64,000 bases of DNA from Bythopirellula sp. (GCA_965216565.1 OZ244170.1:448001-512000), one strand, 5' to 3'; positions 3,265-52,913 are shown, counted from the stretch's first letter. The notes: generated by a model not told the origin, from the sequence alone. A program made the numbers and translations.

Positions 3265-3429
3265 AGGAGGGCTCCTGCTTGTAACGTGGGAATGGTCGTC
3301 GCAATGCGTCGAAGGTTGCCCAAGCGGACGCGAAAGGACGAGGGGGCACTGACAACGATAACTATTGGCTCAGAATCGACGTGCGTCGGCACCGTCGGTT
3401 CCAAGTGTCAGCGCAGTGGCCAGATAGGC

Positions 3430-3864
3430 CTAGAGCAGCAGCGAGGCAATCACTAGTCGGATCGCTATCCCACTAGAAAGGTCCGGACGGCTTTCGGTGC
3501 GGGATTCGAGATGATTGGGCGAAGCGAACGAACGGCAGACCTCGTCAATCGACGCCGCATCAAACTGTTCGCTGAGCGACCAACCAAAACTTAGTTGGCG
3601 GATCTTGTTGGGAGCATCTGAGAGCGCGTGGCACATGCACGATTCGTCGCAAGGGCACTGCGAGGGAGTGGGGCAACGCTCTTCATGGCCGTAGCCGGAA
3701 GACGCCGGTGACAAATCCTGGGAGGTTGAGCACTCGCAACGAAAGACACTCTCACATCGATCCGGTGTAACTGAGGCCTGGGCGACGTTCGCTGTACCCA
3801 TGCATAGCATGGGGCAGAACAGTACCCGCAGCACGATCAGAGAAACGACGATGTGGTGGAACAT
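3430..3864 (-). CDS. Cys-rich putative leader/arrest peptide L1 heading czcBA
   Basis: 144 aa; hydrophobic N-terminus, CPCDESCMCH cluster, ends IRLVIASLLL-stop; same architecture as four other operon-leading ORFs. Confidence 0.7.
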   Translation of the reverse strand: MFHHIVVSLIVLRVLFCPMLCMGTANVAQASVTPDRCESVFRCECSTSQDLSPASSGYGHEERCPTPSQCPCDESCMCHALSDAPNKIRQLSFGWSLSEQFDAASIDEVCRSFASPNHLESRTESRPDLSSGIAIRLVIASLLL

Positions 3865-4180
3865 GGAAAATTACCGGTGAAAACTGCCTTTACCCATTCC
3901 ATTATACTATACCTATCTTGCCGAGGGGACAAGACTGGCCCCAGCAGCCGCTCCCTAGCTAAAAATCGGGAAGAATGCCTGCTTTCGCGGATCCGGAGAC
4001 GGTCGCCAAGGAGCGTTGCATGCAGTGATCTCCATTGAATGACCAGCTGGTAATGCCGTCTTGCAGCGTACCTACATTTGGCTTGGCGAATGCAATAGAC
4101 AGACCTTGGTCTTCATAGTTCAATGACGATTTTGTCGAGTTTTGGAACGAGTGCCACGCCGAATGGGAAGTAGGTTTGAG

Positions 4181-6358
4181 TTAGCGAAGCAATCGCAAGC
4201 CATTGAAGACGACCACGAGCGAAGCGCCCATGTCAGCGGCAATCGCAGCCCACAGCGAAGAATAGCCCCCAAAAGTTAGCAGCACGAACAATGCTTTTAC
4301 GCAGAGAGAAAAGGTGATGTTTTGCCGAATGATTGCCAAAGTACGACGCGAATGGTGAATCAACCAAGGGAGTTTGGCGAGGTCATCTGACATCAAAGCA
4401 ATATCAGCCGTTTCGATCGCAGCATCAGTACCTACAGCACCCATGGCAATTCCCAGTGAGGCACGGGCTAAGGCGGGAGCGTCATTGACACCATCGCCAA
4501 TCATACCAACGTGCTCGAATCTCTCGACAAGGTTTTCTACGGCGTCAACTTTGTTCTCGGGTAGTAATTCTGCATGTACCTCATCGATACCCGCTTCGGA
4601 AGCAATCTTGTCTGCTGTGCCTTGGTTGTCACCGGTCAGCATGACGATGCTTTCAACGCCAGCTTCATGGAGTTCCGACAAGGTTTGCCTGACCGTAGGT
4701 CGTAGTGCATCCGCAAGTGAAATGAAGCCACAAACATGATCGTCGTTACCTACAACTACTATGGAACGCCCTGCTTCTTGCAACGTTTGGAGTTGATGGT
4801 GAATATCAGGAGTCTCTTGGCCGCGCTGTTCCAGATATCGATGCGATCCGAGCCAAAACAGCTTACCACCAACGAGCCCTTGAGCTCCCTTGCCCTGGAT
4901 GATTTCAAAGTTGCCAGCGGGCGGGATGGAAAGGTATCGTTCATTTGCTTCGGCAACAATTGCACGTGCCAGTGGATGGTTGGAGTGCGATTCTAGTGCC
5001 GCCGCTCTCTCCAATAATTCAGTTTCGTTATGTCCGCTAAGCGGTCGGATATCAACGACTTTCGGATTACCATGTGTCAATGTACCAGTCTTGTCCATAG
5101 CAATCGCTCGCAGCTTTGCTGGTGCCTCCACGAAGACGCCACCTTTGATGAGCACGCCGTTCTTGGCTGCTGCCGCCAGTGCGGAAACGATTGAGACGGG
5201 CGTCGAAATCACCAAGGCACACGGGCATGCGATCACTAAGAGCACCAGTGACCGGTAGAGCCACACCGACCACTCGCCGGAAAACAGTAGAGGTGGAACC
5301 AGTAATACCAAAGCAGCTAAGGCCATGACGCAAGGCGTATAATACCGGGCGAATTTTTCGACCCATTGCTCAGACGGGGAGCGTTTTGACTGGGCTTCGC
5401 CAACCATTTTAATGATGCGGGCTAGCGTGGTGTCCTCGGCCTGCCTAGTGGAGTTGATTTCTAGCACGCCATCCCCGTTGATCGTTCCAGCAAATACTTC
5501 CGCATCTTTTTCCTTTTGAGCAGGTACGCTTTCTCCTGTGATGGGTGCCTGATTAACCGCACTAGAACCCTTCAGAACAAGGCCATCCAACGGAATCTTC
5601 TCGCCTGGACGAACAGTAAACGTTGTGCCCACATGCACTTCGGCCACTGCAACTTCTTTTTCGTTTCCGTGTTCGTCACGTACGCGAGCCATTTGTGGAG
5701 CCAGATCCATCAGGGCAGCAATCGCTCGACGCGCGCGGCCAACACTCCATGACTCAAGAAGTAGCGAGACTGAAAACAGGAACGCAACCGTAGCGGCTTC
5801 TAGCCATTCACCTATAGCAGCTGCACCAATTACTGCTACGGTCATCAATAGATTCATGTCTGGTCGTAAAGTCTTTGCTGCCCGCCATGCCTTGGGAAGC
5901 ACGTACCATACGCCCGACAAGATGCCGATGAGATAAGCCGCGACCGACACGACCGGTACGGAGTGTGCGATTCCCATTCCTTCAGAACCCAAGCCTGATT
6001 GCAGACTTCCACCAATCCAGACAGCAAGTACGAAACCCAGCAGGCCGAACAAACCGCTAGCTGATGTCAGGCATATGCGTCCGTAATTTTGCCAGAATCC
6101 GTGGTCGAGAGAATCGTTAGCACGATCACTCCACATTTCTGCATGCATACCAGTGCGTGAGACATAATCGATTACGTCTGTAGCAGAGACCGCAACACCT
6201 TCAGTATCAACACTCAGCTTGGCATTCAGTAGATCAAAGGATAGACGTTCAACTTCTCCAACGAGCGGTCCCAGCTTATCTCTAAGTAAAGATATCTCTT
6301 CGGCGCAATGCATGCCGTCAATTCGAAATTCAAGTCTGTTCGCCATCTTATAATCCAT
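4181..6358 (-). CDS. cadA: Heavy-metal translocating P1B-type ATPase (Cd/Zn/Pb, CadA/ZntA-like)
   Basis: N-terminal HMA GMHCAEE, TGES, CPC (IACPCAL), DKTGTLT, SNHPLA, GDGVNDAP. Confidence 0.93.
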   Translation of the reverse strand: MDYKMANRLEFRIDGMHCAEEISLLRDKLGPLVGEVERLSFDLLNAKLSVDTEGVAVSATDVIDYVSRTGMHAEMWSDRANDSLDHGFWQNYGRICLTSASGLFGLLGFVLAVWIGGSLQSGLGSEGMGIAHSVPVVSVAAYLIGILSGVWYVLPKAWRAAKTLRPDMNLLMTVAVIGAAAIGEWLEAATVAFLFSVSLLLESWSVGRARRAIAALMDLAPQMARVRDEHGNEKEVAVAEVHVGTTFTVRPGEKIPLDGLVLKGSSAVNQAPITGESVPAQKEKDAEVFAGTINGDGVLEINSTRQAEDTTLARIIKMVGEAQSKRSPSEQWVEKFARYYTPCVMALAALVLLVPPLLFSGEWSVWLYRSLVLLVIACPCALVISTPVSIVSALAAAAKNGVLIKGGVFVEAPAKLRAIAMDKTGTLTHGNPKVVDIRPLSGHNETELLERAAALESHSNHPLARAIVAEANERYLSIPPAGNFEIIQGKGAQGLVGGKLFWLGSHRYLEQRGQETPDIHHQLQTLQEAGRSIVVVGNDDHVCGFISLADALRPTVRQTLSELHEAGVESIVMLTGDNQGTADKIASEAGIDEVHAELLPENKVDAVENLVERFEHVGMIGDGVNDAPALARASLGIAMGAVGTDAAIETADIALMSDDLAKLPWLIHHSRRTLAIIRQNITFSLCVKALFVLLTFGGYSSLWAAIAADMGASLVVVFNGLRLLR

Positions 6359-8586: not shown

Positions 8587-9270
8587 TTAGGCGGCGGAAA
8601 GCCTGTCAAGTTCATACGTAACACCTTCGACAAGCTGTATCCCCCGCTTCGCGAATGCGGCGGTGCTTGCGTCCTGGGTGGCAATTATGATCGTTTGTCC
8701 GTTCCTGTGAAAATCGCTGAGATAATTCATCACCTGCTGGCCCGTTCCCGAATCGAGGTTCCCCGTCGGTTCGTCCGCAAGGATTACCTGCGGGTCGTTT
8801 GCCAATGTGCGGGCCAGAGCGACCCGCTGTTGTTGGCCTGGGCTCAGTTCCGATGGCAGGTGGTCAGCTCGACCTGATAGCCCTACTCGTTCGAGAAGTT
8901 GGAGACCACGTTCTCGTTGCTCTTCCTCTGGCTTGCCAGAGAGCATTAGCGGAATCTGGACGTTCTCACAGGCCGACAGCCATGCCACAAGATTGACTGA
9001 CTGAAAGATGAATCCTATCTTATCGCTTCGCAATTTAGTTCGTTCGTGAATCGACATTCCGTACAACGAGCGGTCCTCAAGAAAGACGTTGCCCGATGAC
9101 GGAGCCAGCAACCCACCCAGGATCGACAGCAATGTCGTCTTGCCACTACCGCTGGGTCCGACTATAGCGATGTAGTCATTGTCGGATACTTCAAGATTGC
9201 AGTTTTCGAGTGCGGTCGCGACGTTGTGGCGACGCTTGTAGGTTTGAGTAATTGATTGAAGTTTGTACAT
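8587..9270 (-). CDS. LolD/MacB-type ABC ATPase with degenerate signature and H-loop
   Basis: [36 protein letters not shown] where xTHD is expected. Confidence 0.88.
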
Positions 9271-11109: not shown

Positions 11110-11643
11110 TTACGCTACTGACCGTTGCTGGCCTCCCTCGGGAATCCGATCCACAGGTTTTCCGGCCTGAGACAACCGACATTGCAAGAGGTCAAGCAAT
11201 CTGTGGAGCACTCCCCCGTAGACAATCACGTCTCTAGAAGTTGCCATACTTAGCCACTGGTCGATGGCACTCGGCGGTTCTGGTGAATAGATCCACACTG
11301 AGCGATTGGCATCGATAAGTCGCAACTTGGCTGAGGTAAGCCAGGCACTTTCGTCGTGTTGATTGTCACTTAGAAGTACTAACTCGGGACTGTGGCGAAG
11401 CATTTTGCCTGCCAACTCAGTCGCACTCTCAGCCCTGAAGACGGCAACACCGAGAAGTTCCAGTAAATGGGCAATGGGAGCGTACGCTTCGTCACGGAAC
11501 TCCACGATCACTACGGAACTAAATCTGTTGACTAACTGGGCCGATTGTTGACGCGGTGCTCTGTGTATTCGACTCGAACGTGTGTAACAAAGGCTTCGAA
11601 TATGTGCTTCGTATCCTCGTAAAGCGCAGGGATTTGCACGCAT
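11110..11643 (-). CDS. Degenerate (pseudo-)receiver domain protein
   Basis: CAGGAG RBS before ATG 11643; CheY-like pattern VVIVE..AVFRAESATE..PELVLL..SAWLTSAKLR; paralog of 51999..52757. Confidence 0.65.
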   Translation of the reverse strand: MRANPCALRGYEAHIRSLCYTRSSRIHRAPRQQSAQLVNRFSSVVIVEFRDEAYAPIAHLLELLGVAVFRAESATELAGKMLRHSPELVLLSDNQHDESAWLTSAKLRLIDANRSVWIYSPEPPSAIDQWLSMATSRDVIVYGGVLHRLLDLLQCRLSQAGKPVDRIPEGGQQRSVA

Positions 11644-11824: not shown

Positions 11825-12277
11825 TCAGAGCAAGAAACGGCAGAAGAGGATACAGGGTTGCTGCACGCTGCTGGAGTTGTTTTGCGTGTCAGTGAATGTG
11901 AACTGACGTAACAATTCGAGATGGTTCGATGCGGTACTTGAGACGGAACAGACATCGACATGCAATAGTTCTGAGAGGGAACGTGTCTGCTGCTGCGAGA
12001 ACGGTAATCCGCTCAGCGGTAGCTTATGACATTTGCAGGTGCAGGGCTGCCCTTGTGAGTCTGTGCAATTACAAGAGCAGCAAATAGAATCGGCATATTT
12101 TGATGTTTTGGAGTGGGATTCACATTGGCAATGTGATGTGTCGCTAGATTGACAGGGACAATCTAGCGTACAGATACAGATTGAAGCGAACACGACATGG
12201 CAAGGCATGCAAAGTGCGAGGCATACAGCCACGATAGTACGGATTGAGGCACGCTTTTTAAACATGTTATCGTTCAC
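11825..12277 (-). CDS. Cys-rich putative leader/arrest peptide L2
   Basis: Hydrophobic N-terminus, ICICTLDCPC...CCSCNC...PCTCKCH, ends QPCILFCRFLL-stop. Confidence 0.78.
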   Translation of the reverse strand: MNDNMFKKRASIRTIVAVCLALCMPCHVVFASICICTLDCPCQSSDTSHCQCESHSKTSKYADSICCSCNCTDSQGQPCTCKCHKLPLSGLPFSQQQTRSLSELLHVDVCSVSSTASNHLELLRQFTFTDTQNNSSSVQQPCILFCRFLL

Positions 12278-16208: not shown

Positions 16209-19200
16209 TCAGACGGTTTCTCCCTCCTCGACCAACTCAACATGCTGTTGTCCAGCTTTAATCACTCGGTGCGCTGCTCCCAGTCCGAATGTCCAGAACA
16301 GCGCCGGGCGGACGAAGAATTCAAGTACCGTGCTACTGATTAGTCCGCCCAGGATTACAGTAGCTATCGGATACAAGATTTCTTTCCCTGGTTCACCGGC
16401 CGACATTGCTAGCGGGACGAGCCCGATACCCGATGTCAACGCAGTCATGAGCACGGGGGCTAGGCGCTCTTTACCGGCTCGAATAATCATCTCTTTTGAC
16501 CAGGTTTCTCCTTCATGGCGAACGAGATGCAAGTAATGGTTGAGCAGCAAAATGCCATTACGTGAGGCAATACCGCCTAGCGAAATAAAACCAACCATCG
16601 CTGCCACTGTTAGTGTCTGGCCTGTAATCACAAGCGCTGTTACCGACCCAATGAACGCCATTGGCAATGCCACCATCACCTGCAACGCAAAATTCACCGA
16701 ACGGAACATCGTATAGAGCACCATCAGAACCCCGAACATGGATACGCTAAACAGCACACCGATAACTCGACTAGCATTCTTTTCACTTTCGAATTGCCCA
16801 CCGTATTCAACGAAATATCCTGCTGGAAGAGATTCAATTACCGAACGCTGGGCAGCTTGCATCTCGGTCACCACATCTACCAGGCCTCGACCGGAGACGT
16901 TGCACTGAATAACGATACGGCGTCGCACTAGCTCGCGGTTGATAGTGTTCGGTCCACTAGATTTATAGATCTTCGCAACCGATGACAGTGGTGCGGTTCC
17001 GCCTCCTGGCAGATCAATCGAAAGTCGCCCCAGGGCTTGCAAGTTCTCCCGGTATTTTTCATCCATTCGGACTAACAGATCAAAGGTACGCTGACCTAGT
17101 AGCACCTGACTAACGACTTCACCGTTCATGGCGGTCGAAATGTATTCATTCACAAAGACCGGGGTCAGGCCGTACTGCTCAAGTTTGTCGCGGTTCAGTT
17201 CTATGCGAAGCTGGGGAATCTCAACTTGCGGCTCTACGAGCAAGTCGGTGACGCCATCGATACCGCGCATCTTTGCCGCCATTTCCTGGGCGCTGCGACG
17301 AAGAATGCTCAAATCGTCGCCGTAAATCTTAATACCCACCTGGGCCTTCACACCGGAGATCATGTGCGAAATCAAGTGAGCTAGTGGCTGTTCAACTGTC
17401 GTAACGATGCCAGGAATGTCTTCCATCGCGTATCGAATATTGTCCAGTACTTCTTCGCGGCTGACATCAGATTCAGGGTCAAAGCTAATGAACAACTCGG
17501 TGATGTTAACGCCTTCGGCGTGCTCATCGAGTTCTGCCCGACCGGTCCGTCTTGCAAAGGCCTCGACTCCCTCAATTTGCATCAATCGCTCAATCACAGT
17601 TTGGGCGATAGTGTTCGACTTCTTCAGTGATGTACCCGGCGGCAAAACGACGTTGAGTTGAGCCACTCCCTCGTTAAACGGCGGCAAGAAATCACGCTCA
17701 AGGCTAGCAAGATAGGCGAAGGCTATCGCGACTCCACAGGCAGCTGCAAGCAACATAGCTTTTGGAATGCGAAGACTCAGCTGCATAGCGCCCCCAGCGA
17801 CCCACTTGAGAAAACGGAGCAGGGGTCCATCCTTTTCGCTTTCCATCAATTTCGCACGAGACAAAAGCCAATAGGACAAAACCGGCGTCAATGTCAGCGA
17901 GACAAGCAAAGAGGACAGAATCGAGACGATGTACGCGACCCCCAGTGGCGCGAACAGCCGTCCTTCCATTCCAGACAGAGCAAACAGTGGAATAAACACG
18001 ATGACTACGATCATCGTGCCAAAAACAATCGAGTTTCGAATCTCGACGCTGGCTTGGAACACCACCAGCAGCGGGTGTTTGGGAGATTTAGCGTGGCGAT
18101 TCTCACGGAGTCGACGGAAAATATTCTCAACATCGACAATCGCATCATCGACCAATTCTCCAATGGCAACTGCCAAGCCCCCAAGCGTCATCGTATTGAT
18201 TGATAGCCCAAAGGCTGTAAACACAAGAGCAGTGATGGCGATGGAGAGTGGAATCGCGGTTAGGGTAATAAAAGTTGTCCGGAAGTTCATCAGGAAGAGA
18301 AAGAGGATGATGACAACGAGAATACCTCCGTCACGAAGAGCTTCCACGACATTGTCTATTGCACGCTCAATGAACGCCTTTTGCGAGTACAGTTCAGGTT
18401 GAATGCGGATGTCGTCCGGCAATGATGGCTTCAGATCTTCCAGTGCCTGCATGATCTGATCGGTGACTTCACGCGTATCTGCTTTCGGCTGCTTGTTCAC
18501 GGTGAGAATAACAGCCGGGCCACCCGAAAACTCTCCATTTTCGTCCCGAACGTATGCCGAGCTGTCACCACGTTTGACTTGGGGGCCTTCAATGACGGTC
18601 GCAATCTGCGAAAGTAACACCGGGCGGCCTTCTCGCATCTTTACTACAACTCGTTTCAAGTCATTGAGAGTTTGCACGCGGCCTAGAGCACGTACAAGAA
18701 ACTCATTTGGCCCTTGTTCGTCCAAATAACCTCCGGTGGCATTTTCGTTGCTTTCTTGGCAAGCGCGCTTCACATCGTGCAGTGTTATGCCGTATTCGAG
18801 CAGCTTGTCAGGGTCGACGAGCACTTGAAATTGCATGCGACCACCGCCCATGGTGAACACTTGAGATACACCGGGGATGGTGAGCAGTCGCTGTCGAACC
18901 ACCCAATCGGCAAGCGTCCGCACTTCCAGCGGCGAGGTTTTTCCCTCTTCGCTCCACATGCCGATCATAATGATCTGTCCCATGATGGAGGAGATTGGTG
19001 CGAGCTGTGGTTTGACACCCTCCGGCATTCGGTCTTGGACCAACTGCAATCGCTCCATAACGATCTGCCGGTCGTTATAAATATCAGTCCCCCAATCAAA
19101 TTCGACGTAGATGACAGAGATGCCAACGCCTGCGGAACTGCGAACGGCTTCAACACCATTAGCACCATTGATCGCGGTTTCGAGCGGGAATGTGATCAAG

Positions 19201-19388
19201 GCTTCAACTTCTTCTGGCGCCATTCCTGGTGCCTCAGTCATTACCACCACGCGAGGTCGGTTTAAGTTTGGAAAGACGTCGATGTCCATCTGGATTGCTT
19301 TCCAGCCCCCAAATCCCATCAGGAAAAGGGAGAGGACAACGACAAGCAAACGCTGCCCCAGTGCAAATCGAATAATGGCGTTGAGCAC
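16209..19388 (-). CDS. CzcA/CusA-family heavy-metal efflux RND transporter
   Basis: MLNAIIRFAL..DVFPNLNRP, GELVDDAIVDVEN, EGRLFAPL, GRAELDEHAEG; 1059 aa. Confidence 0.93.
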   Translation of the reverse strand: MLNAIIRFALGQRLLVVVLSLFLMGFGGWKAIQMDIDVFPNLNRPRVVVMTEAPGMAPEEVEALITFPLETAINGANGVEAVRSSAGVGISVIYVEFDWGTDIYNDRQIVMERLQLVQDRMPEGVKPQLAPISSIMGQIIMIGMWSEEGKTSPLEVRTLADWVVRQRLLTIPGVSQVFTMGGGRMQFQVLVDPDKLLEYGITLHDVKRACQESNENATGGYLDEQGPNEFLVRALGRVQTLNDLKRVVVKMREGRPVLLSQIATVIEGPQVKRGDSSAYVRDENGEFSGGPAVILTVNKQPKADTREVTDQIMQALEDLKPSLPDDIRIQPELYSQKAFIERAIDNVVEALRDGGILVVIILFLFLMNFRTTFITLTAIPLSIAITALVFTAFGLSINTMTLGGLAVAIGELVDDAIVDVENIFRRLRENRHAKSPKHPLLVVFQASVEIRNSIVFGTMIVVIVFIPLFALSGMEGRLFAPLGVAYIVSILSSLLVSLTLTPVLSYWLLSRAKLMESEKDGPLLRFLKWVAGGAMQLSLRIPKAMLLAAACGVAIAFAYLASLERDFLPPFNEGVAQLNVVLPPGTSLKKSNTIAQTVIERLMQIEGVEAFARRTGRAELDEHAEGVNITELFISFDPESDVSREEVLDNIRYAMEDIPGIVTTVEQPLAHLISHMISGVKAQVGIKIYGDDLSILRRSAQEMAAKMRGIDGVTDLLVEPQVEIPQLRIELNRDKLEQYGLTPVFVNEYISTAMNGEVVSQVLLGQRTFDLLVRMDEKYRENLQALGRLSIDLPGGGTAPLSSVAKIYKSSGPNTINRELVRRRIVIQCNVSGRGLVDVVTEMQAAQRSVIESLPAGYFVEYGGQFESEKNASRVIGVLFSVSMFGVLMVLYTMFRSVNFALQVMVALPMAFIGSVTALVITGQTLTVAAMVGFISLGGIASRNGILLLNHYLHLVRHEGETWSKEMIIRAGKERLAPVLMTALTSGIGLVPLAMSAGEPGKEILYPIATVILGGLISSTVLEFFVRPALFWTFGLGAAHRVIKAGQQHVELVEEGETV

Positions 19389-19399
19389 GGTGGAATCTC

Positions 19400-20887
19400 C
19401 TAGTGATTGTGTCCTGCATGCGGATCAACTCCGCCACCGGCTTTATTCTTAAGGGCGACTTGCATCTGATGGGCACCTGTCAGAGCGACGGTGTCTCCAG
19501 GAAACAAGGACCCATCATTAGCAACTACGACCCACAATTGGTCCCGATACTCGACATGCACTGCCCGTCGGTCGAAATGGTCGCCGTTTTGCAGAAACAC
19601 GAAGGTCTCTGCTCCTTCCTGGGCAACAGCGTCGACTGGCAAGACAATTCGATCTTTCCACTGCTCGACAGGAACACGAAGCTGCATCCGTTGTCCCGGC
19701 TTGAACCGCCACGTCACAAAACGGTGGCCATCCGGTGTGGTCGTGTCTTGAAGTACCTGATTTGGAATATCTACGTAGAACCGCTGTGCCCGAGAGTCGG
19801 TTTCTACTTCGTTGTCTACAAAGACTATCTTTAGGCCTTCAACAGTTTGTGTGCCGGGCCCATTGTTTTCGAGAACTGCTGTAATGTCCCAGCCAGGTTC
19901 GCCCGCAGCCTGCATGCGCGCCGCGAGGGCGATCTCTTCAGCATCTTGCTCGAAGGCTTGTCCCTCCACAAACAATTCATCGAGGTCTGCCAGGACAGCC
20001 AACGGGTAACCAACTTCCATTGATGATCCCACATGTACGTTTACTGCTTGCACGGTATACATATGGTCTGACTTAAGGCTGTTATCTGACGGGGCTGTTG
20101 AAGTGACTGGCCTTAGGGTCGTATCGTATTGATGCAATCTCTCGCCATGAACTGGTAGGGCCGGTGCTCGAACTTCGAGTTGGCGCAACAAGCGTCGACC
20201 GCTGGCGATATTGTCAATTTGCTTAGTTGACAACCCGTGCAGCAGCAATGCTTCACGGTGAGCGTTTAAGAATGCCTCTAGTTTTTGCTTGGAATACTTA
20301 CGCTCAAGGAGTCTCTTGCCAGCGATAACACCGCTAACATCGAGGCCGGACAGACGCTCGATTTCACGCTCTTCAACGTCGAGCTCGCCCAATGTTTTTA
20401 AGAACACAGTCTGGGCTTGAACGAGATCTTCGTGCGTTAGCTTGACGGTAAACATTAAGTCCCCCGGTTCGATGGCCTCTCCTTGCACGGTATGTACTGC
20501 CTCAATAACTCCGTTCATTGGGGCAGCAATTTGGACTTTTGTATGTCCTGGACGTTCGACAATACGAGCTGGGACATTGAGTGTGCGAATAAAAGCCCTC
20601 AGCTGGATCGGTTGCAGCTTCTCAGCAGTCAATCCGATATTGCGTTGAGCCTGCGGCGAGAGCTCCAGAGAGGTGGCTTCTGTATGACCCGCATGTGCGG
20701 CATGGTCGTGACCTTCGTGGCTATCCGGTTCACTAGCGACACCTTCCTCTTGCTTCCCAAGGTTTCCGCGCTGCACGAGCGGCAACCAATAGGCTCTCGT
20801 AGCGATAGTCGCAGTTACCAAGACGAGCACACCAATAAGGAGAATGGAGCCGCGTATAACCAGCGCCTTAGTTGAATTAGTTGCCAT
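19400..20887 (-). CDS. RND periplasmic adaptor subunit
   Basis: TM anchor, His-rich linker (HEGHDHAAHAGH), APMNG, RFKPGQ, ends DPHAGHNH; adjacent to the RND gene. Confidence 0.88.
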   Translation of the reverse strand: MATNSTKALVIRGSILLIGVLVLVTATIATRAYWLPLVQRGNLGKQEEGVASEPDSHEGHDHAAHAGHTEATSLELSPQAQRNIGLTAEKLQPIQLRAFIRTLNVPARIVERPGHTKVQIAAPMNGVIEAVHTVQGEAIEPGDLMFTVKLTHEDLVQAQTVFLKTLGELDVEEREIERLSGLDVSGVIAGKRLLERKYSKQKLEAFLNAHREALLLHGLSTKQIDNIASGRRLLRQLEVRAPALPVHGERLHQYDTTLRPVTSTAPSDNSLKSDHMYTVQAVNVHVGSSMEVGYPLAVLADLDELFVEGQAFEQDAEEIALAARMQAAGEPGWDITAVLENNGPGTQTVEGLKIVFVDNEVETDSRAQRFYVDIPNQVLQDTTTPDGHRFVTWRFKPGQRMQLRVPVEQWKDRIVLPVDAVAQEGAETFVFLQNGDHFDRRAVHVEYRDQLWVVVANDGSLFPGDTVALTGAHQMQVALKNKAGGGVDPHAGHNH

Positions 20888-21054: not shown

Positions 21055-21513
21055 TCAAATCAAGAAGACGCAATTAGCGAGGTGCGAGCGCACCGGTAGC
21101 GCATGTGGAGAATGAGCTACGGAGAAGGTGAGAGTCGATTCGCCGACAGGGAACAATGAAACGAATGTGGCGTCGAGAACAGGTGTCAGGGCGAACAGAA
21201 AGTCCAACTGAATCAGATCACTGCCGTCCCGCATTTCGGGTGCAGGCCACATGCACTGAGCATGGGTGCATGTATGTGGAGCGGGATGGGTCGGATCTGT
21301 GGGATGGTGAGCATGTTCCCCACATGAGTGGTTTGTTTCCAAGTGCAGTGGGACTTGCTCATTTTCTTCTTCATGACAATCTTGACCACCAACTTCATGG
21401 TGGTGATGACCGCAGACGGCATCAATAAGACTGTGTCCCTCATGCGCGCAACATCCCAGTGTCGCATGGACCAGGATTGCAGCAGCTGTGATTAGGTGGA
21501 CGTACGTACGCAT
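21055..21513 (-). CDS. His/Cys-rich putative leader/arrest peptide L3
   Basis: MRTYVHLITAAAILVHATLGCCAHEGH..HHHH..HTCTHAQC, ends VRSHLANCVFLI-stop. Confidence 0.8.
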   Translation of the reverse strand: MRTYVHLITAAAILVHATLGCCAHEGHSLIDAVCGHHHHEVGGQDCHEEENEQVPLHLETNHSCGEHAHHPTDPTHPAPHTCTHAQCMWPAPEMRDGSDLIQLDFLFALTPVLDATFVSLFPVGESTLTFSVAHSPHALPVRSHLANCVFLI

Positions 21514-35372: not shown

Positions 35373-35543
35373 GGTTTTCTCCTCTTCTCAATTTATGGGT
35401 TGGCGAAGCACTGACTGCCTCCACGGAGTGAGTCAGTCAGCAAGTTTGGAAATGATCAACAGGAACTCCAGAAGTGACTCGCTATAGCAAGCCGAACTTA
35501 AGGAAGTCATGAGACGCGAGCAGAAGGCTCGCAAGAAGAGAAG

Positions 35544-36053
35544 TCAGATTAAGAAGCGGCAGAGCTCAGCGCAGCGCTGCACGGCAGATTCAGTCCATAC
35601 ATCAGCGGTGGACGCATAGTCGCATGACGCTGTCCGATCCGCACCAATTGCTGCAACAACAATCGAAGCATCGCTTTGCGTAAGGTTCCGGAGCAACAAC
35701 TCAATAGGCTCCGATGGGCCCTTCGGCAACTGCAGAGGTTGCGCGGGCTGGTGACACCAGCAATCTGGCGGACAGGGGCACGACTTGTCCTGGTCGTCTA
35801 TGCAGTCCCGTTCTGGAGAGCGAACACTAGCCTCTCGTGCTGATGTACATGCATGAGAGTGAGAGCATGATTTTGCCTCTGAGTGGGAATGCTCGCTACA
35901 CGCTGTCTCTGCAGAACAAGTGGCAGCACATCCACCAAGATGACACAGAAGATGCAAATCCTGAACGCTAGGCAATAACGCAAGCACGACCCCCAGAAGG
36001 GCTGTAATTCGCTTCGAGTTATTGTAACGGCTCAGCACGAGCTGTGACTCCAT
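35544..36053 (-). CDS. Cys/His-rich putative leader/arrest peptide L4
   Basis: Hydrophobic segment, CHLGGCAATC..CSHSHAC..CPCPPDCWCH, ends QRCAELCRFLI-stop. Confidence 0.8.
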   Translation of the reverse strand: MESQLVLSRYNNSKRITALLGVVLALLPSVQDLHLLCHLGGCAATCSAETACSEHSHSEAKSCSHSHACTSAREASVRSPERDCIDDQDKSCPCPPDCWCHQPAQPLQLPKGPSEPIELLLRNLTQSDASIVVAAIGADRTASCDYASTADVWTESAVQRCAELCRFLI

Positions 36054-41474: not shown

Positions 41475-41566
41475 TGAGTTTTTGGGTTAGAAAGATGCGT
41501 AAGTTGCCAGTTTGCACTACTATCTGAGAACAAAGTGCCTGGAGCACTCTTCTTGTCGAGATCGTA

Positions 41567-44397: not shown

Positions 44398-44649
44398 TCA
44401 CCAATCGGTTTCATGATACCTCTTGCAGCCGAACGCCATACTCGTCCTGGCATTGAATAATCGAGCCACTTAGGCTGAAGTTGCGCTGTACAGTCGACAG
44501 AATGGATGCTCAGCGAACGAAACTTTCTCGTGAGAATAAATCTAGTCTGCTCAACAGTATTGGATGCGGCAGCTTGCTCGTTTCTTCACCCGCAGAAGAG
44601 AAGATTGTGGCGGGTTCTAAGAGTTTTGTACGATCTGTCGTGGAGTTAG

Positions 44650-45477: not shown

Positions 45478-45478
45478 A

Positions 45479-46673: not shown

Positions 46674-46723
46674 GCGTGCGGGCGACTGGAAAAGTAGTGC
46701 CCCCAACTACGTCGCCCGTACGC
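46674..46723 (+). other. Stem-loop in the long 5' region of the divergent operon
   Basis: GCGTGCGGGCGAC / GTCGCCCGTACGC (13 bp, one G-U on + strand) with inner GTAGT/ACTAC. Confidence 0.55.
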
Positions 46724-46800
46724 TATGCAAAGAAAGTTTCCTTAACTGCGTATAGCGAAGATCAAAATCTTACGTTTTTCAAACCAAACGAGGACCAAAT

Positions 46801-47208
46801 ATGACACACAAACTTCTTTTTCCTGGCATATTTGTCCTCCTACTGGCTCAGATTGGTTGCGGTGAACCATCAGCTACCGGGCCACCTCCACGAGAAGTTG
46901 CACCCAATGCAAATGAGGGACATGGTCGGCATGGGCATGATAGTCACGATGGACATGCTCACGGCGGCGAAGATGAACTATCAGACATGGAGAAAATGAA
47001 TATGGAGCTGGCAAAACTCTCTCCTGCAGATGCCGCTTCGGCTGAAAAACAGCATATTTGTCCGGTAACCGAAGAGATGTTGGGCACGATGGGTGCGCCT
47101 ATCAAGGTTGATGTCAATGGACAGGATGTATGGATCTGCTGTGAAGGATGTAGAGATGCTCTCTTGGAAAATCCCTCCAAATTCCTTGCCAAGCTGAAAA
47201 GAGAATAG
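46801..47208 (+). CDS. His-rich lipoprotein with YHS/TRASH-like domain
   Basis: Lipobox IGC; HGRHGHDSHDGHAH; CPVT..LGTMG.P..ICCEGC. Confidence 0.82.
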   Translation: MTHKLLFPGIFVLLLAQIGCGEPSATGPPPREVAPNANEGHGRHGHDSHDGHAHGGEDELSDMEKMNMELAKLSPADAASAEKQHICPVTEEMLGTMGAPIKVDVNGQDVWICCEGCRDALLENPSKFLAKLKRE

Positions 47209-47243
47209 TCCCAACAGCGATTTGAAGAACACTCATTGGAGGC

Positions 47244-47873
47244 ATGAACATGATGGCGTTAGATACTTCGAGTTCGCAGTCCATACCGAATGGTTTAGAT
47301 ACATCCATTCAACAGGCTTCGCGTGAAGATATCCCCTACTTGGCAGGCATTTTGGCGCGAGCACTTGACGACGACCCAGTATCACGTTGGATGTTTCCAG
47401 ATGATGAGCGAAGACCAAGGAGTCAAGAAATAGACTTTGGCCGGCTATTAAAAAGTCATTTAAGGACTCGCAATGTTTGGACTATCGACCGCAAATGCGT
47501 CGCGATTTGGACTCCCCCAAATCCTCCTCAGCAAACGCGATTTCAGCGGTATCGAGAATCGCTTTATATGAGATGGATGCATGGGCGTCGCGTTCACAAA
47601 GTCAGGGATTGTCTCCAGCGTATGGCGGAACGACATCCAAGTACGCCTTACTGGTATCTATTAGCCCTCGCAACCGACGTACATTTGCAAGGTCAAGGGT
47701 TGGCAAGCCGCCTACTTAACGAAAAGTTGGCTCAGTGTGATAAGAATGGGGAGCAGATTGCGCTTGAAACGTCGAAAGAATCGAATTTGTCGTTTTACGA
47801 GAAGTTCGGCTTTGTCGTAGTAGACACGCTCATGGTTGATGAAGGTGTAACTTCCTGGTTAATGTGCAGATAA
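47244..47873 (+). CDS. GNAT-family N-acetyltransferase
   Basis: WYLLALAT..QGQGLAS.L, LETS..N.SFYEKFGF. Confidence 0.88.
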   Translation: MNMMALDTSSSQSIPNGLDTSIQQASREDIPYLAGILARALDDDPVSRWMFPDDERRPRSQEIDFGRLLKSHLRTRNVWTIDRKCVAIWTPPNPPQQTRFQRYRESLYMRWMHGRRVHKVRDCLQRMAERHPSTPYWYLLALATDVHLQGQGLASRLLNEKLAQCDKNGEQIALETSKESNLSFYEKFGFVVVDTLMVDEGVTSWLMCR

Positions 47874-47907
47874 GCAGTCCAAAAAGTAGGATAAAGAGTG
47901 GATTTCA

Positions 47908-48573
47908 ATGTGTGGTCTAATTGAATTTACGAGTCGAATAAAAGAAAAAATGGAGAGCGCCAATCGCGAGCCACACTGGGGACCGGGCGAAGCCCAACGC
48001 TACATGAACGAGGTAGCTGTGCGTCGCGATCGTTTTGAGAAAATTGCTTTCCAATACAACGAGAACTTGATTCAGTCTCGTATTGAAACACTCGCCAATT
48101 ACTTTATCAATGCTAACGTTACAAAGACCGAGCCGCCTGGGCATAGTGAGTGCTGGTTCGGATATTGCGAACGATTTCCGTCAAACACGAGACTCGCCTT
48201 TTCTATTGAGCACGACGTACGTTTCGAGAATGTGGCCATCTGCTACGACGTATCCATGACGCCCTTGTTCATTCGCTTCAACGAGCATGACAGGCTGACA
48301 GTGGCACTTACTGAAGTCAACGAAGATCTAGTTTGTAAATGGGTCGAAGAGCGAATTATGGAGTTTCTCGACGCCTACCTACGCATTGACCGTGGCGCCG
48401 AAGATTTCGAGGATGAGCCAGTCATCGATCCCGTCTGTGGAATGCGCATTAGTAGGTCTTCCGCCGCAAATACTGATTCATACTGTGGGCATCCCTACTT
48501 CTTTTGCTCTGAGCAATGTCGCAAAAAGTTCGAGGAGGATCCTACACATTACGCAACAATTAGAACGTTGTAG
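47908..48573 (+). CDS. Coiled-coil + C-terminal YHS domain protein
   Basis: DPVCGM..YFFCSEQC..F..DP.HY; paralog of 36420..37091. Confidence 0.82.
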   Translation: MCGLIEFTSRIKEKMESANREPHWGPGEAQRYMNEVAVRRDRFEKIAFQYNENLIQSRIETLANYFINANVTKTEPPGHSECWFGYCERFPSNTRLAFSIEHDVRFENVAICYDVSMTPLFIRFNEHDRLTVALTEVNEDLVCKWVEERIMEFLDAYLRIDRGAEDFEDEPVIDPVCGMRISRSSAANTDSYCGHPYFFCSEQCRKKFEEDPTHYATIRTL

Positions 48574-48710
48574 AGAGAGATGAAGCGATAACTGGGTTGA
48601 GAAACGGTTGCGGCTACGTTTGAGCAGGCGGCTAACTCCAGAAGGAAGCCGCCCTGTGAATAAAGTAGAAAGTGATTGTTCTGGTTACGCCTAAAATGGA
48701 GGAGGCTTGC

Positions 48711-49295
48711 ATGAGTCATAAGATCCAAACAGCCATTCTATCGGCTTTCGTGATGATCTTGTTCGTGCTACTTGTCTTTTCTAAGGTAGCTGGCCAAAGC
48801 CCAGACTCAGGAAACGACAATTCCGAGGGTATTCGGATACGTTATGCACGGGCATCTTGGCAACTAGCTCAACTGGAATTGGAAATCGTTCTAAACGCAA
48901 ACAAGGAGATACCGAACTTACATACGCCTCGGACTATTCGGCGTTTGCGAAACAATATTGACTATGCAAAGGAGATGTTGCGATACGAGACGGAGCGTGG
49001 AGAAAATGGCCTCCATAAACTGCATTTGCGTGAGCTAGAAGTCGAACTGGAAGTAGCGAGGTTAGAATTGAACGCCGCTCGAAAACTCAATGAGCAATTA
49101 CCTGGTGCAGTTGGTGATCTAGAATTTGGGAAGTTACGTGTTGCTACAGACGTAGCTCGATTGGCGCTGGATAAGGCTCGCGAGCCAGCCGTGGTGCAAT
49201 CTCGTGAGGATCATTTGCAGTGGCAGATAGATCGGATGCGCACTGAATTGACTCGCCTTTACATACTTATGGACAAAGCCCTGTCTCGTAACTGA
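48711..49295 (+). CDS. Exported helical hypothetical protein
   Basis: GGAGGAGG RBS, signal/TM segment, coiled-coil composition. Confidence 0.65.
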   Translation: MSHKIQTAILSAFVMILFVLLVFSKVAGQSPDSGNDNSEGIRIRYARASWQLAQLELEIVLNANKEIPNLHTPRTIRRLRNNIDYAKEMLRYETERGENGLHKLHLRELEVELEVARLELNAARKLNEQLPGAVGDLEFGKLRVATDVARLALDKAREPAVVQSREDHLQWQIDRMRTELTRLYILMDKALSRN

Positions 49296-49324
49296 CCACT
49301 GATAATTATCGGAGAATAACAGTC

Positions 49325-50194
49325 ATGACTATTACGCATAAAAGAGGCTCTGGCCACTCGTTAGCTAACTTGGCATGTAGCTTCCTCCTAGTCAGTGGAC
49401 TCACCACAACCGTTAGTGCTCAGCAATCAGTGACGGAACACCAGTCGCATACTGCAAATCCGTCGACGTCGTCCAAGGTAGAGACTCCACTGGCCGAGCA
49501 ACTACAACAGCTTCACAACAAAGTCGCTCAGTTGGAGGCAGTCCTACAGCAGAACCATCAAGCAGCAGCAACGACTGGCCAAACCAAGATGAAGATGGGG
49601 GGCATGCAAGGTGGTTCGACGTCCGGAATGGGCATGATGTCGAGCATGGGCTCACAGCAACCAGACAAGACCAGTGGCAGCATGAGTATGGGGGGCATGA
49701 AGAACATGCCGATGATGGGGGGTATGTCCGGCATGGATATGATGGGCGGCAAAGGCATGATGATGATGGGGAAGATGCAGGGCATGGGCCAACAGGCCAT
49801 GCCTTCAGCCCTGCCTGGCTTCCCAGGGGCTTCGCATATCTACCACATTGGCTCGACAAACTTCTTCCTCGATCATCCACAGCACATCACGCTCACACAA
49901 GAACAGCAATTAAGGCTCAACCAAATCAAGCAAAAAGCGATCTTGGGTCAGACCACGTTCGAGCGATGGGATAGTGCGGCGGAGCAGGAACTTTGGCTGC
50001 TCACCAGTGCCGATTCTCCCGACGTGTCAAAGATAGAGGAAAAGGTTCGTGAGACCGAGAAATTGCGAGCAGACAAACGTATCGCTTTCATCCGCGCCGT
50101 AGGAGAGGCAGCCAGTGTGCTAACCGAAGAACAACGACAGACGTTAGTCGGAACATTACCGCTGGACCACACCTCGCAGGGCCAAAGTCATTAA
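49325..50194 (+). CDS. Periplasmic Met-rich Spy/CpxP/ZraP-like heavy-metal-binding protein
   Basis: Signal peptide, Met/Gly-rich tract, LPGFPGASHIYHIG..FFLDH, and two LTxxQ motifs (LTQEQ, LTEEQ). Confidence 0.8.
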   Translation: MTITHKRGSGHSLANLACSFLLVSGLTTTVSAQQSVTEHQSHTANPSTSSKVETPLAEQLQQLHNKVAQLEAVLQQNHQAAATTGQTKMKMGGMQGGSTSGMGMMSSMGSQQPDKTSGSMSMGGMKNMPMMGGMSGMDMMGGKGMMMMGKMQGMGQQAMPSALPGFPGASHIYHIGSTNFFLDHPQHITLTQEQQLRLNQIKQKAILGQTTFERWDSAAEQELWLLTSADSPDVSKIEEKVRETEKLRADKRIAFIRAVGEAASVLTEEQRQTLVGTLPLDHTSQGQSH

Positions 50195-50672
50195 GAGCTT
50201 CATCTGAATCGCAAATCACGAAAATGAGTCCTATACGAATTAAATAGTCCCCTAAGTAGTACTCGACGGCTAGAGTCCGCTTAGCAGTCACATAAAGAGA
50301 CAAGCGCGTGTCACAAAACTATGCCTGGGAGATTGTTTCCTCTGGGAGTGGTAAGGTAGAACAGCGATCATCACTGGTAAAACTCTCTTCGCTTGGGTAG
50401 TCCAACTAGTTTGCTTGCTAGTAGTGAGTGGAGTACCCATTGCCTTCGCACAGTACAAGAGTGGGGATTAGTATCCCTATCAACGCCAGCCTGCGATGAT
50501 CGCAGGCTGTCTATCGGCGCAACAAAGGGATGCAAATTTCTTCTTGCAAAACTCTCAATCGTCGCCAATTCGTTTCTCCATACCGTGCGAAGCATGAGGT
50601 GGACCCCCAAAACTGGACAACCCTATAAGGTGTAGAATACTCCCTTTGGGAGTCCACCAGGAGGTCCGGTTT

Positions 50673-50960
50673 ATGGCACGGAAGCGAAGAGTGTTTAGTG
50701 GTGTTTTCAAGGCGAAGGTGGCCTTGGCAGCGGCCCGTGGCGACAAGACGACAGCAGAGCTGGCTGCGAAGTTTGCGGTTCATGCTAGCCAGGTGACGGC
50801 CTGGAAGAAGCAACTGCTCTCGGGAGCAGCAGAGCTGTTTTCTGACGGTCGTAACCGTCAGGAAGAAAACTCTGCGGCCGAGCAAGAACTTTACGAACAG
50901 ATTGGCCGCTTGAAGATGGAAGTCGAGTGGTTGAAAAAAAAATCTACCCAGCTCAGCTAA
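50673..50960 (+). CDS. IS3 transposase OrfA (HTH)
   Basis: MARKRR.FS..FKAKVAL..ELA.KF.VH..QV..WKK..LYEQIGRLKME.EWLKKK; CAGGAGG RBS. Confidence 0.9.
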   Translation: MARKRRVFSGVFKAKVALAAARGDKTTAELAAKFAVHASQVTAWKKQLLSGAAELFSDGRNRQEENSAAEQELYEQIGRLKMEVEWLKKKSTQLS

Positions 50961-51768
50961 GGAACTCAGACGATGGATCGATCCAGCCCATGTGCAACTG
51001 AGCGTAGCTCGCCAATGCGAGTTGCTCGGTCTACCTCGCTCGACGTGGTACTACGAACCTCTGGGCGAAACGACCGAAAACCTGAAACTGATGCGCGCCA
51101 TCGACGAGCAGTATCTCAAGACACCGTTTTACGGCAGCCGAAAGATGTCAGAAGTGTTTGGCGTCAATCGCAAGCGAATTCAGCGTCTGATGAGACTGAT
51201 GGGAATCGAAGCGATTTATCCAAAGCATCGCACCACTTGTCCAGGTGCTGGACACAAGATTTACCCGTATTTACTGCGAAATGTGGCAATTATTCGTCCC
51301 AATCAGGTTTGGAGTACCGATATCACCTACCTGCCGATGCAACAAGGTTTTTTGTATCTGGTCGCGGTGATGGATTGGTACAGCCGGTTCGTGCTGAGCT
51401 GGCGGCTTTCCAACACGCTCACAATCGATTTTTGTTTAGAGGCGCTCGACGAGGCGTTGTCTACCAAGCAACCCGAGATATTTAACAGCGACCAAGGCAG
51501 TCAATTCACCGCGACAGAGTTTACCAATCGACTCTCTACACGCGGTGTATCGATTAGCATGGACGGACGTGGCAGGGCACTAGACAACGTGTTTGTCGAA
51601 CGTCTGTGGCGTACGGTGAAGTACGAGGAGGTATATCTGAAAGACTATGGTGATGGCTGGGAAGCGAAAGCAAGCCTCACGGCCTACTTCGAATTCTATT
51701 GCCACGAACGCATTCACCAGGCGCTGGGATATCGCACGCCTGCAGATGTTTATGGCAAGCGAAACTGA
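50935..51768 (+). CDS. IS3 transposase OrfB (DDE integrase core), entered at the A9 tract
   Basis: Open from the A9 tract: ..KELRRWIDPAHVQLSVARQCELL..WSTDITY..NSDQGSQF..DNVFVERLWRTVKYE. Confidence 0.9.
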   Translation, partial: KKNLPSSAKELRRWIDPAHVQLSVARQCELLGLPRSTWYYEPLGETTENLKLMRAIDEQYLKTPFYGSRKMSEVFGVNRKRIQRLMRLMGIEAIYPKHRTTCPGAGHKIYPYLLRNVAIIRPNQVWSTDITYLPMQQGFLYLVAVMDWYSRFVLSWRLSNTLTIDFCLEALDEALSTKQPEIFNSDQGSQFTATEFTNRLSTRGVSISMDGRGRALDNVFVERLWRTVKYEEVYLKDYGDGWEAKASLTAYFEFYCHERIHQALGYRTPADVYGKRN

Positions 51769-51998
51769 AGCCACAGCCACCGAAATGACGACCCATCTAA
51801 TACGAAAAATTTTGCGAGAAGGCGGACATCAAACGGTACACAAGCAACCAATTGACGAAAGCCGGCCGCGCCAGCCCTGTGAGGGGGCTGGCGGGCCTAC
51901 CGAAAGCAACTCTTATACAACCCTGTTTACTGTCCAACTAATGGGGTCCACCTCCGCACTCGACTTGACCCGTGCCATCATGACCTCGCTATATCAAG

Positions 51999-52757
51999 TC
52001 ACTCCTGGCCATCATCTCTTGTGAATTGAGATGTCGAATCGTGCCGATCGTTGCAATTGTCTATCAGACTAACGATCAATGCAGACAGCGAGAGCAAATC
52101 GCCCCGGTATTCTAGCAATGCCTCAAGATCCAAGAAGCTAGCGAGCCCACGATCATAGCTAGAGGATCGAGATTGATAGAGCCAAACGCGAATATTACGA
52201 TCGACCAGCCGCAGCTTGTCAGCCATGAGCCAACCGCTGTAATCGAGCAATTGGACATTGGCCACGAGTAGTACCGGTCCCTTCTTAACGCACAAGTTTA
52301 ACGCCTCGGTCGCCGACTTGGCACGAATAACACGCACGCCTCCGTTGGCAATGTCAGTTGCTATGCGTGCGAACACCTCGTCGCGATGCTCAACTAGCAG
52401 GACAGTAGGCAACGACACTGATTGGTAAGCATTTTCTTCAAGTGTGGAAGCGTAAGACCCATCCAATCGAGCAGCGTCATTCGGTGCATCAGCTAGTGAA
52501 TGCAGACGCTGACAATGACAATCCGACATGTGTGCCGCACCATTGCCCGTTGTGCGTAGCAACTGCTCCGCTCTGGTCAACAGATCGGTACCGGCGCGAT
52601 TTTTGGCAGCTAACGAGCCATCAACGTTTTCATACACCCTGAAACTACTGCGACAGTGGCCACACACTAACTCGTCGTTGATATATTGTGACCGCATCGT
52701 TATAGGGCGACCGCAAACCGGGCAATCGACCATTACATATGCACTTTGCAGAATCAT
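51999..52757 (-). CDS. Zinc-ribbon + degenerate receiver domain protein
   Basis: CPVCG..CGHC at the N-terminus; C-terminal VLLVEHRDE..VIRAKSATEA..SGWLMADKLR, paralogous to 11110..11643. Confidence 0.72.
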   Translation of the reverse strand: MILQSAYVMVDCPVCGRPITMRSQYINDELVCGHCRSSFRVYENVDGSLAAKNRAGTDLLTRAEQLLRTTGNGAAHMSDCHCQRLHSLADAPNDAARLDGSYASTLEENAYQSVSLPTVLLVEHRDEVFARIATDIANGGVRVIRAKSATEALNLCVKKGPVLLVANVQLLDYSGWLMADKLRLVDRNIRVWLYQSRSSSYDRGLASFLDLEALLEYRGDLLSLSALIVSLIDNCNDRHDSTSQFTRDDGQE

Positions 52758-52913
52758 CCTTCTTTCCTCCATGCCAGCCGCTCACGCGGCGGAGGCAAGA
52801 TGCCATAGGCATCTAGCACGGTAAAAAGTGACGCAGAACCTTGAATATTCAACGCGTCCTAAGAGCACCAATAGCCCGTGGATTGACAATCACAAGCAGG
52901 ATGACAGGAGAGA

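Follow-up and report, generated by a model that had tools for sequence, protein, structure and literature searches.

We analysed a 64,000-nucleotide stretch of the genome of Bythopirellula sp. (GCA_965216565.1, OZ244170.1:448001-512000), referred to below as the window, with positions counted from its first letter. The window has the character of a metal-resistance island, encoding P-type ATPase, MerR, DtxR-like, MerT/HMA and YHS proteins as well as extracytoplasmic function (ECF) sigma/anti-sigma regulators, and it carries five copies, L1 to L5, of a leader module. In every copy, a minus-strand open reading frame (ORF) of 144-169 codons, whose product is hydrophobic at the N-terminus, rich in Cys or His in its middle and similar in its tail (atypical in L1), is followed on the same strand, after 156-181 nt, by an ATG with a GGAG-type Shine-Dalgarno (SD) sequence. 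A profile of the five leader proteins finds six copies in the source genome; the sixth lies outside the window, elsewhere in the genome, and was unseen in the original prediction, a reading of the window alone which held that the end of each leader is complementary to the ribosome-binding site or start of the next gene and that a stalled ribosome would free this site. In the L5 type, the helix between anti-SD and SD is well supported, being strong and conserved and showing partial compensation; it is the only part of the proposed switch established at the sequence level. The leaders and their putative pairing elements are as follows (expected ensemble pairs are defined below).

3430..3864, minus strand: L1 leader ORF, 144 aa, atypical tail ...IASLLL, stop UAG at 3430-3432
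3434-3442 (last codons) with 3271-3279, minus strand: claimed L1 helix, 6.7 ensemble pairs
11825..12277, minus strand: L2 leader ORF, about 146-150 aa, tail ...LFCRFLL, stop UGA at 11825-11827
11811-11827 with 11643-11658, minus strand: claimed L2 helix, missing from the predicted ensemble (0.1 pairs)
21055..21513, minus strand: L3 leader ORF, 152 aa, His-rich, tail ...NCVFLI, stop UGA at 21055-21057
21048-21062 with 20887-20899, minus strand: claimed L3 helix, present in the window sequence only (5.3 pairs)
35544..36053, minus strand: L4 leader ORF, 169 aa, H clade, tail ...CAELCRFLI, stop UGA at 35544-35546
35533..35543, minus strand: L4 post-stop pyrimidine tract, 10/10 pairs (one G-U) with 35379-35388
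35516..35532, minus strand: L4 hairpin P1, 6-bp stem and a CUUCU loop of pyrimidines, a conserved element that co-varies within the H clade
35379..35388, minus strand: L4 partner arm, SD region of the HMA-domain gene 34671-35372 (ATG 35370-35372)
52914..53378, minus strand: L5 leader ORF, 154 aa, Z clade, hydrophobic N-terminus, Cys-rich middle, tail ...CVQLCRFQL, stop UAA at 52914-52916
52898..52913, minus strand: anti-SD arm of L5, a pyrimidine tract after the stop with 11.4 expected pairs to the SD window
52754..52770, minus strand: L5 partner arm, purine-rich SD region and AUG (52755-52757)
52758..52913, minus strand: L5 spacer RNA, 156 nt, long-range closing helix and three inner hairpins co-varying in the clade

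The leader family is lineage-specific, a profile of 22 sequences giving 74 matches spread over 43 of the 120 genomes searched within the same taxonomic family (16 of 24 genera), and the five-protein profile found no match in 24 genomes from other families of the order. Among 5.8 billion protein clusters 28 match, all without an informative name, and a protein atlas search returned unnamed planctomycete clusters only. No Pfam, NCBIfam or Rfam family covers the window leaders or spacers, and Rfam gave 0 matches at the gathering score on both strands of the 64-kb window. We analysed 79 leader loci, eight of them added through alignment of the L5-type downstream protein; L025, which has no ORF with the family tail, is out of all counts. 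An SD-ATG was assigned in 73 loci, and the pairing tests exclude L056, L066, L067, L068, L070 and L072, where none was assigned downstream.

The family tail is C-x3-C-R-F-L-I-stop, conserved in the 79 loci at Cys-9 (68), Cys-5 (72), Arg-4 (66), Phe-3 (57), Leu-2 (60) and Ile-1 (42), and about 90% of members have CxxxC at -9/-5 from the C-terminus. In 27 loci ending in LCRFLI the codon third positions are free to vary, which points to selection on the peptide. Counted from the C-terminus, the closest Cys of the main cluster is found at a median distance of 68 residues (interquartile range (IQR) 66-69, range 56-71), the linker between cluster and tail being fixed in length and not conserved in sequence. 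By inspection, every copy has a hydrophobic N-terminal segment and Cys/His clusters, and AlphaFold2, run for L4 with a 22-sequence alignment, gave no globular fold (pLDDT 62, pTM 0.28), only the N-terminal helix being confident. The leaders stop at UGA (64), UAA (13) or UAG (2), counts which overstate independence, the loci being mutually related; in the 2,425 long ORFs of the genome, UGA accounts for 28%, UAA for 30% and UAG, the commonest stop, for 42%. As 77 of the 79 leader stops are UGA or UAA, they are readable by release factor 2 (RF2); L1, with its atypical tail, is one of the two UAG-stop leaders. The leader always precedes a same-strand gene at a near-constant distance (median spacer 169 nt, IQR 161-187; 140-210 nt in 65 of 73 loci), and the downstream genes belong to metal homeostasis, encoding membrane-fusion protein (MFP)/RND, HMA, FtsX/ABC and OEP components.

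By downstream gene, the loci fall into clades Z (L5 type, 15 loci), H (L4 type, HMA, 22), U (L2 type, 7), M (L1 and L3 types, MFP, 7), K (8) and V (14). The 15 L5-type loci, drawn from different genomes and metagenomes, have a pyrimidine tract beginning 1-8 nt past the stop, whose duplex with the SD reaches -15 kcal/mol or stronger in 12 of them; genomic post-stop 28-mers give a background mean of -8.5. Expected pairs between leader end and SD were taken from folding ensembles (context from stop-60 to ATG+40, a 19-nt SD/AUG window against a 40-nt stop window), with gene pairs of the same genome as controls (gap of 130-230 nt and an SD-ATG; n=291, of which 250 were folded). At least 4 pairs form in 10 of the 15 L5-type loci, mostly 9-14, compared with 10.8% of the 250 controls, which reach at least 5 pairs in 8.8% and at least 7 in 4% of cases. 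When the stop codon plus 25 nt of each locus was matched with every SD window in a 65 x 65 duplex matrix, own pairs proved far stronger than foreign ones in clade Z only (-19.2 vs about -10).

The arms of this helix are matched by lineage, pairing as SD flank/tract GAGAGAGUU/AACUCUCUC, GAGAGAGUC/GGCUCUCUC, GUGGAG/CUCCAC and GGAAGGGA/UCUUUUCC, and within the clade own pairs exceed foreign pairs (-17.2 vs -15.4, permutation p=0.008). RNAalifold, applied to 7 and to 15 sequences, gives a long-range helix that closes three inner hairpins, the last of which has a GNRA-type loop directly 5' of the SD. In this consensus structure 86.8% of cells are paired, against at most 57.6% with slid partners; double-sided changes affect 12 pairs, against 6.5 +/- 1.8 in shuffles, and the covariation score lies above all 500 shuffles. 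Within the closing helix, the four core pairs show 90% pairing. In four public DNA runs over 35300-53400, the L4 and L5 modules are identical to the window among the pieces listed, with no helix variants.

A post-stop pyrimidine tract is shared more widely. At least 9 pyrimidines in the first 12 nt occur in 46% of 71 leaders and in 9.2% of the 2,425 genomic long ORFs, the enrichment being limited to positions +1 to +10 (74% pyrimidine, 8% A). With a threshold of 8 or more pyrimidines among the 10 nt immediately following the stop, the tract is present in 13/15 Z, 15/22 H, 5/14 V and 3/7 M loci. In the H clade it is followed, 10-12 nt after the stop, by hairpin P1, whose stem co-varies (double changes in 5 of 7 pairs; 80% of cells paired vs at most 45% when slid) and whose loop is a conserved pyrimidine pentamer (CUUCU or CCUCU), a second anti-SD-like element. 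RNAalifold on 21 H-clade spacers recovers P1 alone, the mid-spacer MAFFT alignment being poor. A conserved CUGCGC...GCGCAG hairpin or palindrome also stands about 50-60 nt before the ATG (35372) in many H-clade loci. An anti-SD switch of the L4 type is plausible, its pairing being weak.

The family, its tail, the spacing, the tract and the helices with their conservation are results at the level of sequence, and the CutF/SecM-like logic of the original prediction fits this anatomy, in which a putatively exported, Cys/His-rich protein with an almost invariant C-terminus is encoded ahead of a spacer and a strong SD. We read the module as a translational sensor of the CutF/CruR kind with a new, proline-free tail, acting through an anti-SD switch in the L5 type, and put the probability of this reading at about 0.5. 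The module would begin with an exported leader of about 150 aa, rich in Cys and His, without a globular fold and ending in C-x3-C-R-F-L-I-stop; a structured RNA spacer of some 170 nt would come next, and then the first gene, with a strong SD, of an operon for metal export or handling. In the L5 type, the tract would serve as a pyrimidine anti-SD: by pairing with the downstream SD and AUG it would close the spacer to form an RNA of four helices, and a ribosome that terminates or pauses would keep the closing helix open, so that translation of the next gene could begin. The L4-type clade, having the same tract with a hairpin at the leading edge of the ribosome, may follow the same logic. That leader and downstream gene share a transcript, that the ribosome pauses or arrests at the stop, that the response depends on metal, and which way regulation runs are inferences.

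Several results weigh against this reading, beginning with the five complementarities from which the idea arose. All of them exist, with 10 (L4), 12 (L2), 12 (L3), 7 (L5) and 8 (L1) pairs and duplex energies of -12.3, -13.0, -8.1, -8.3 and -12.0 kcal/mol, respectively. Their expected presence in low-energy ensembles was borne out for L1, L3, L4 and L5 and failed for L2: minimum free energy folds from stop-30 to ATG+20 contain a stop-to-SD helix in the former four and not in L2, and the expected ensemble pairs are 11.4 (L5), 10.6 (L4), 6.7 (L1), 5.3 (L3) and 0.1 (L2), with 7.6 for the sixth copy. The helix is thereby in the ensemble for five of the six own-genome copies, and about one in ten ordinary gene pairs shows likewise. 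Ranked among the 291 control pairs by best duplex (41-nt stop window vs 22-nt SD window), the five window duplexes are of ordinary strength for real gene pairs, at the 8th-22nd percentile (L4 8.6th, L2 7.9th, L3 22nd, L5 16.5th, L1 14.8th), and the sixth copy is at the 63rd. The helices were also expected to be better than dinucleotide shuffles, and here the expectation failed: shuffling the stop window gave p<0.05 at 4 of 24 loci, with the six own-genome copies at 0.08-0.96, and the shuffled 40-nt stop window still pairs with the SD in 83% (L1), 92% (L4), 93% (L5) and 62% (sixth copy) of cases. Since shuffling keeps the pairing, the signal is one of composition, not order; L3 alone is order-dependent, SD pairing being kept in 5% of shuffles with the full RNA folded. 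The source of the pairing is a pyrimidine-rich leader end facing a purine-rich SD, the mid-spacer being locked in its own hairpins.

These observations raise the alternative of a compositional coincidence, in which the leader end would be pyrimidine-rich for some other reason (coding of C-R-F-L-I, termination context or a protein-binding site), the SD is purine-rich, and no regulatory helix forms in vivo. The shuffles and the ordinary strength of the five duplexes agree with it, as do the equality of own and foreign pairings outside the L5 type and the accessibility of the SD in free RNA, which is the same as in controls (0.40, ordinary genes 0.41). It fits poorly, however, with a tract at a fixed place in two clades whose spacers are otherwise unalignable, and with an L5-type complementarity that reaches well past the SD core, is lineage-matched and closes a co-varying multi-helix RNA. 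We consider this coincidence unlikely as the general explanation; for L1, L2 and L3, the complementarities are most likely by-products of composition.

Comparison across clades limits the proposed switch further. The tract was found in no U (0/7) or K (0/8) locus, so the supposed conservation of position rather than sequence applies to part of the family, mainly the Z and H tracts, and fails in these two clades. In place of a tract, K-clade spacers (L007, L013, L016, L017, L028, L041) have a conserved UUYYGCGGCG-like start directly after the stop. In the duplex matrix, the own duplexes of non-Z clades (-8.7 to -11.2) equal the cross-locus ones (about -10); overall, the permutation test gave p=0.02, and the own SD had a median rank of 0.49 among all SDs. 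Ranked against 300 genomic post-stop 28-mers, 24 of the 65 loci were within the best 10% (median 0.26), and the family-wide shift is modest and carried by Z and H. At least 4 ensemble pairs form in 15 of 65 loci (Z 4/7, H 6/22, M 2/7, V 3/14, U 0/7, K 0/8), and outside Z and the source genome in 7 of 53 (13%), compared with 10.8% of controls. Orthologues give 0.0-0.2 ensemble pairs for the L3 type (five loci) and 0.0-1.6 for the L2 type (six loci). The H-clade tract makes just 6-7 pairs with the usual AAGGAGAA-type SD, the 10 of the window L4 being the best, and no specificity of tract-SD pairing was demonstrated in this clade. Even in the 15 L5-type loci, double-sided covariation is absent from the SD core, whose pairs vary one-sidedly, as would be expected with an SD for one arm; the covariation sought for the helices is found in the inner hairpins and in lineage-specific compensation, and not in that core. 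Of a switch at each of the five leaders, the L5 type survives, L4 retains a conserved tract only, and L1, L2 and L3 drop out, their helices being unconserved in orthologues and their own pairings no better than cross-locus ones.

The effect of a ribosome on the SD was modelled by masking. A ribosome on a stop codon covers about 10 nt past it, and the 30 nt that a ribosome would cover when the stop is in its A site were forced unpaired. Mean SD unpaired probability rose by 0.038 in 73 loci vs 0.005 in 150 controls (Mann-Whitney p=0.0017), and for L4 it went from 0.34 to 0.58. The predicted freeing of the SD is thereby seen above controls, yet the effect is small: a rise of at least 0.2 occurs in just 7 of 73 loci (1.3% of controls), and L5 goes from 0.33 to 0.37, because its purine-rich SD finds other pyrimidine partners in silico. 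Equilibrium folding, as modelled here, supports a clean on/off switch only weakly. The protein adds two further points on the same side, in that the tail is without proline and matches no known arrest motif, and a Pfam scan of the six leaders at E up to 10 left DUF2946 (PF11162) unmatched.

In SecM-secA and MifM-yidC2, arrest at the end of an exported leader disrupts an mRNA helix and exposes the next SD; their helices are local and their arrest motifs experimental, whereas here the helix spans about 150 nt and arrest is a supposition. In the coat-replicase region of RNA phage MS2, a distant upstream segment pairs with the downstream ribosome-binding site and crossing ribosomes open the pairing, although this is a viral genome with no sensor peptide, and its upstream arm lies within the coding region, not directly after the stop. 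In TnaC-tnaA of E. coli, stalling takes place at an RF2-read UGA stop about 220 nt before the regulated gene, and the leader family resembles it in its prevalent UGA/RF2 stop and its long spacer; TnaC differs in being a cytoplasmic, tryptophan-sensing peptide of 24 aa that acts through Rho.

A bolder form of the sensor reading takes the C-x3-C-R-F-L-I tail and its RF2-read stop as a proline-free, metal-tuned termination-arrest module that would sense periplasmic or tail-bound metal, the arrested ribosome opening the anti-SD helix. The Cys/His cluster, 66-69 residues upstream, would span the ribosome tunnel and the translocon and could report periplasmic metal to the stop-bound ribosome, or the tail CxxxC might bind metal within the tunnel. 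We regard this form as unlikely. If true, six paralogous sensors with different Cys/His clusters would provide metal-specific translational control of six export systems.

The closest published counterparts are CutF and CruR. For the cutFOG operon of Rhodobacter capsulatus, the reports describe a stalled ribosome that melts an SD-shielding stem, CutF-related leaders upstream of RND and OEP efflux genes, and CutF-like spacers mostly below 100 nt (PMC9973294; bioRxiv 10.1101/2025.02.05.636593). As with CutF, the first gene of the modules described here, ahead of metal-homeostasis genes, encodes a small and probably exported protein that combines a Cys metal motif with a conserved motif at its C-terminus, and a predicted mRNA structure would shield the next SD and be opened by a ribosome at the leader end. 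An SD-sequestering helix near the leader end is found in the L5 type (12 of 15 duplexes, 10 of 15 ensembles), the other clades being at background. Unlike in CutF, the window spacers are about 170 nt long, the SD is hidden by a long-range closing helix instead of a local stem-loop, and a single genome carries six paralogous modules. PF11162, searched against all six frames of the genome, gave nothing over the cut-off and nothing at the leader loci. At none of the last 9 tail positions does proline rank within the six commonest residues (79 loci), the tail does not fit the RAPP/PPP pattern, and EF-P/polyproline stalling cannot apply to a proline-free tail. With neither the profile nor the proline motif matched, we file the modules by analogy, as leaders that would work like CutF, and not as members of its family.

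CruR (Bp2923) of Bordetella pertussis is reported to act through Rho-dependent termination, with a RAPP motif and a 162-bp cruR-bfrG spacer, long spacers being usual for cruR homologues and a few homologues occurring in Planctomycetes (PMC9426467). It is likewise an upstream-ORF type metal sensor with a long, probably structured spacer and cis regulation via the ribosome at a C-terminal motif; the leaders here are without RAPP, without a clear bubble of C over G, and without a family match. Together with TnaC, CruR suggests another reading, in which a ribosome held at the stop would hide or expose a Rho entry site there, polymerase would terminate in the spacer, and SD pairing would be secondary. 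The long spacers (median 169 nt; cf. the 162 bp of the cruR-bfrG spacer, PMC9426467), the C-rich and G-poor first 10 nt after the stop (C/G 1.9), the strong UGA-stop bias and the absence of an intrinsic terminator from the two spacers scanned (L4 and L5) are in keeping with such attenuation. Past +10, however, C/G is 1.05-1.46 with no C>G bubble, and the spacer, with its high degree of structure and its co-varying hairpins, does not resemble an unstructured rut site; we hold this mechanism to be quite unlikely.

The leaders might also be stand-alone periplasmic metal-binding proteins, the tail CxxxC forming part of a metal site and the spacer serving as promoter or operator, with no coupling in cis. 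At 144-169 aa the ORFs are long for leaders, they are Cys/His-rich and end in CxxxC, the palindrome-like CUGCGC...GCGCAG of the H clade lies about 50 nt before the SD, and MerR, DtxR and ECF sigma regulators are encoded in the island. This explanation is improbable in view of the lack of a predicted globular fold, of a linker fixed in length and free in sequence, and of a same-strand gene that always follows at near-constant distance. The spacer stems keep G-U pairs and co-vary, which places their conservation at the RNA level, and no sigma-70-like promoter was found in the two spacers scanned (L4 and L5).

Within a full-text search, no leader family with a CxxxC-RFLI tail was found described, although supplementary lists of CutF-like proteins might include members; CutF and CruR were the only relevant published work found. 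If the L5-type helix works as proposed, nascent-chain metal sensing would reach a phylum and a protein family undetected by the known profile, using a proline-free tail and a long-range multi-helix RNA in place of a local stem-loop, and the L5-type spacer would be an uncatalogued cis-regulatory RNA motif with covariation support. The modules also carry a methodological lesson: complementarity between leader end and SD is visible by eye in every copy, and only real gene pairs and orthologues separate the conserved from the coincidental.

The genes downstream of the leaders, and other features of the island, are listed below.

1582..3264, minus strand: membrane-fusion protein gene after L1, followed by an RND pump at 2-1570
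11110..11643, minus strand: first gene after L2, 177-aa protein of no known family
9315-10562 and 8587-9270: further genes after L2, FtsX permease and ABC ATPase
16209..20887, minus strand: genes after L3, membrane-fusion protein (19400-20887) and RND pump (16209-19388)
51999-52757, minus strand: gene after L5, conserved 252-aa zinc-ribbon/receiver-like protein
50992-51768, plus strand: rve-type integrase (insertion sequence element), directly downstream of the L5 module
12857-14308, minus strand: DegP/HtrA-like protease with two PDZ domains
44650-46153, minus strand: ECF sigma factor and zf-HC2 anti-sigma factor

The HMA-domain gene after L4 is followed by a MacB-type ABC system with an outer-membrane factor. 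The 252-aa protein after L5 has an N-terminal double CxxC zinc-ribbon-like motif and no Pfam family, and its C-terminal half gives a weak receiver-domain-like match (NCBIfam E=2.9e-5, below cut-off); it may be a candidate regulator of the island. The sixth leader copy (L006), like the L5 module, adjoins an integrase-like ORF. A 98-aa ORF at 44101-44397, before the HMBD-MFP gene, was considered as a sixth leader and rejected, since it lacks both a Cys cluster and a tail like that of the family. With their hydrophobic F-L-I ends, the leaders are similar to the C-terminal peptides that PDZ proteases recognise, a putative alternative use of the tail.

No SD-like sequence occurs within 20 nt 5' of any of the six leader ATGs (3865-3884, 12266-12285, 21514-21533, 36054-36073 and 53379-53398 on the minus strand, and the corresponding stretch of L006), unlike the downstream genes, each of which has a strong SD. 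Hexamers resembling a -10 element precede the ATG by 8 nt in L4 (TATACT) and by 1 nt in L5 (TACAAT), and in view of both features the leaders may use leaderless or very short 5' ends. As in the window, leader modules of different clades cluster in islands of other genomes: four copies lie within about 72 kb on contig 15 of G008, three within about 94 kb in G012, and three within about 16 kb on contig 18 of G014.

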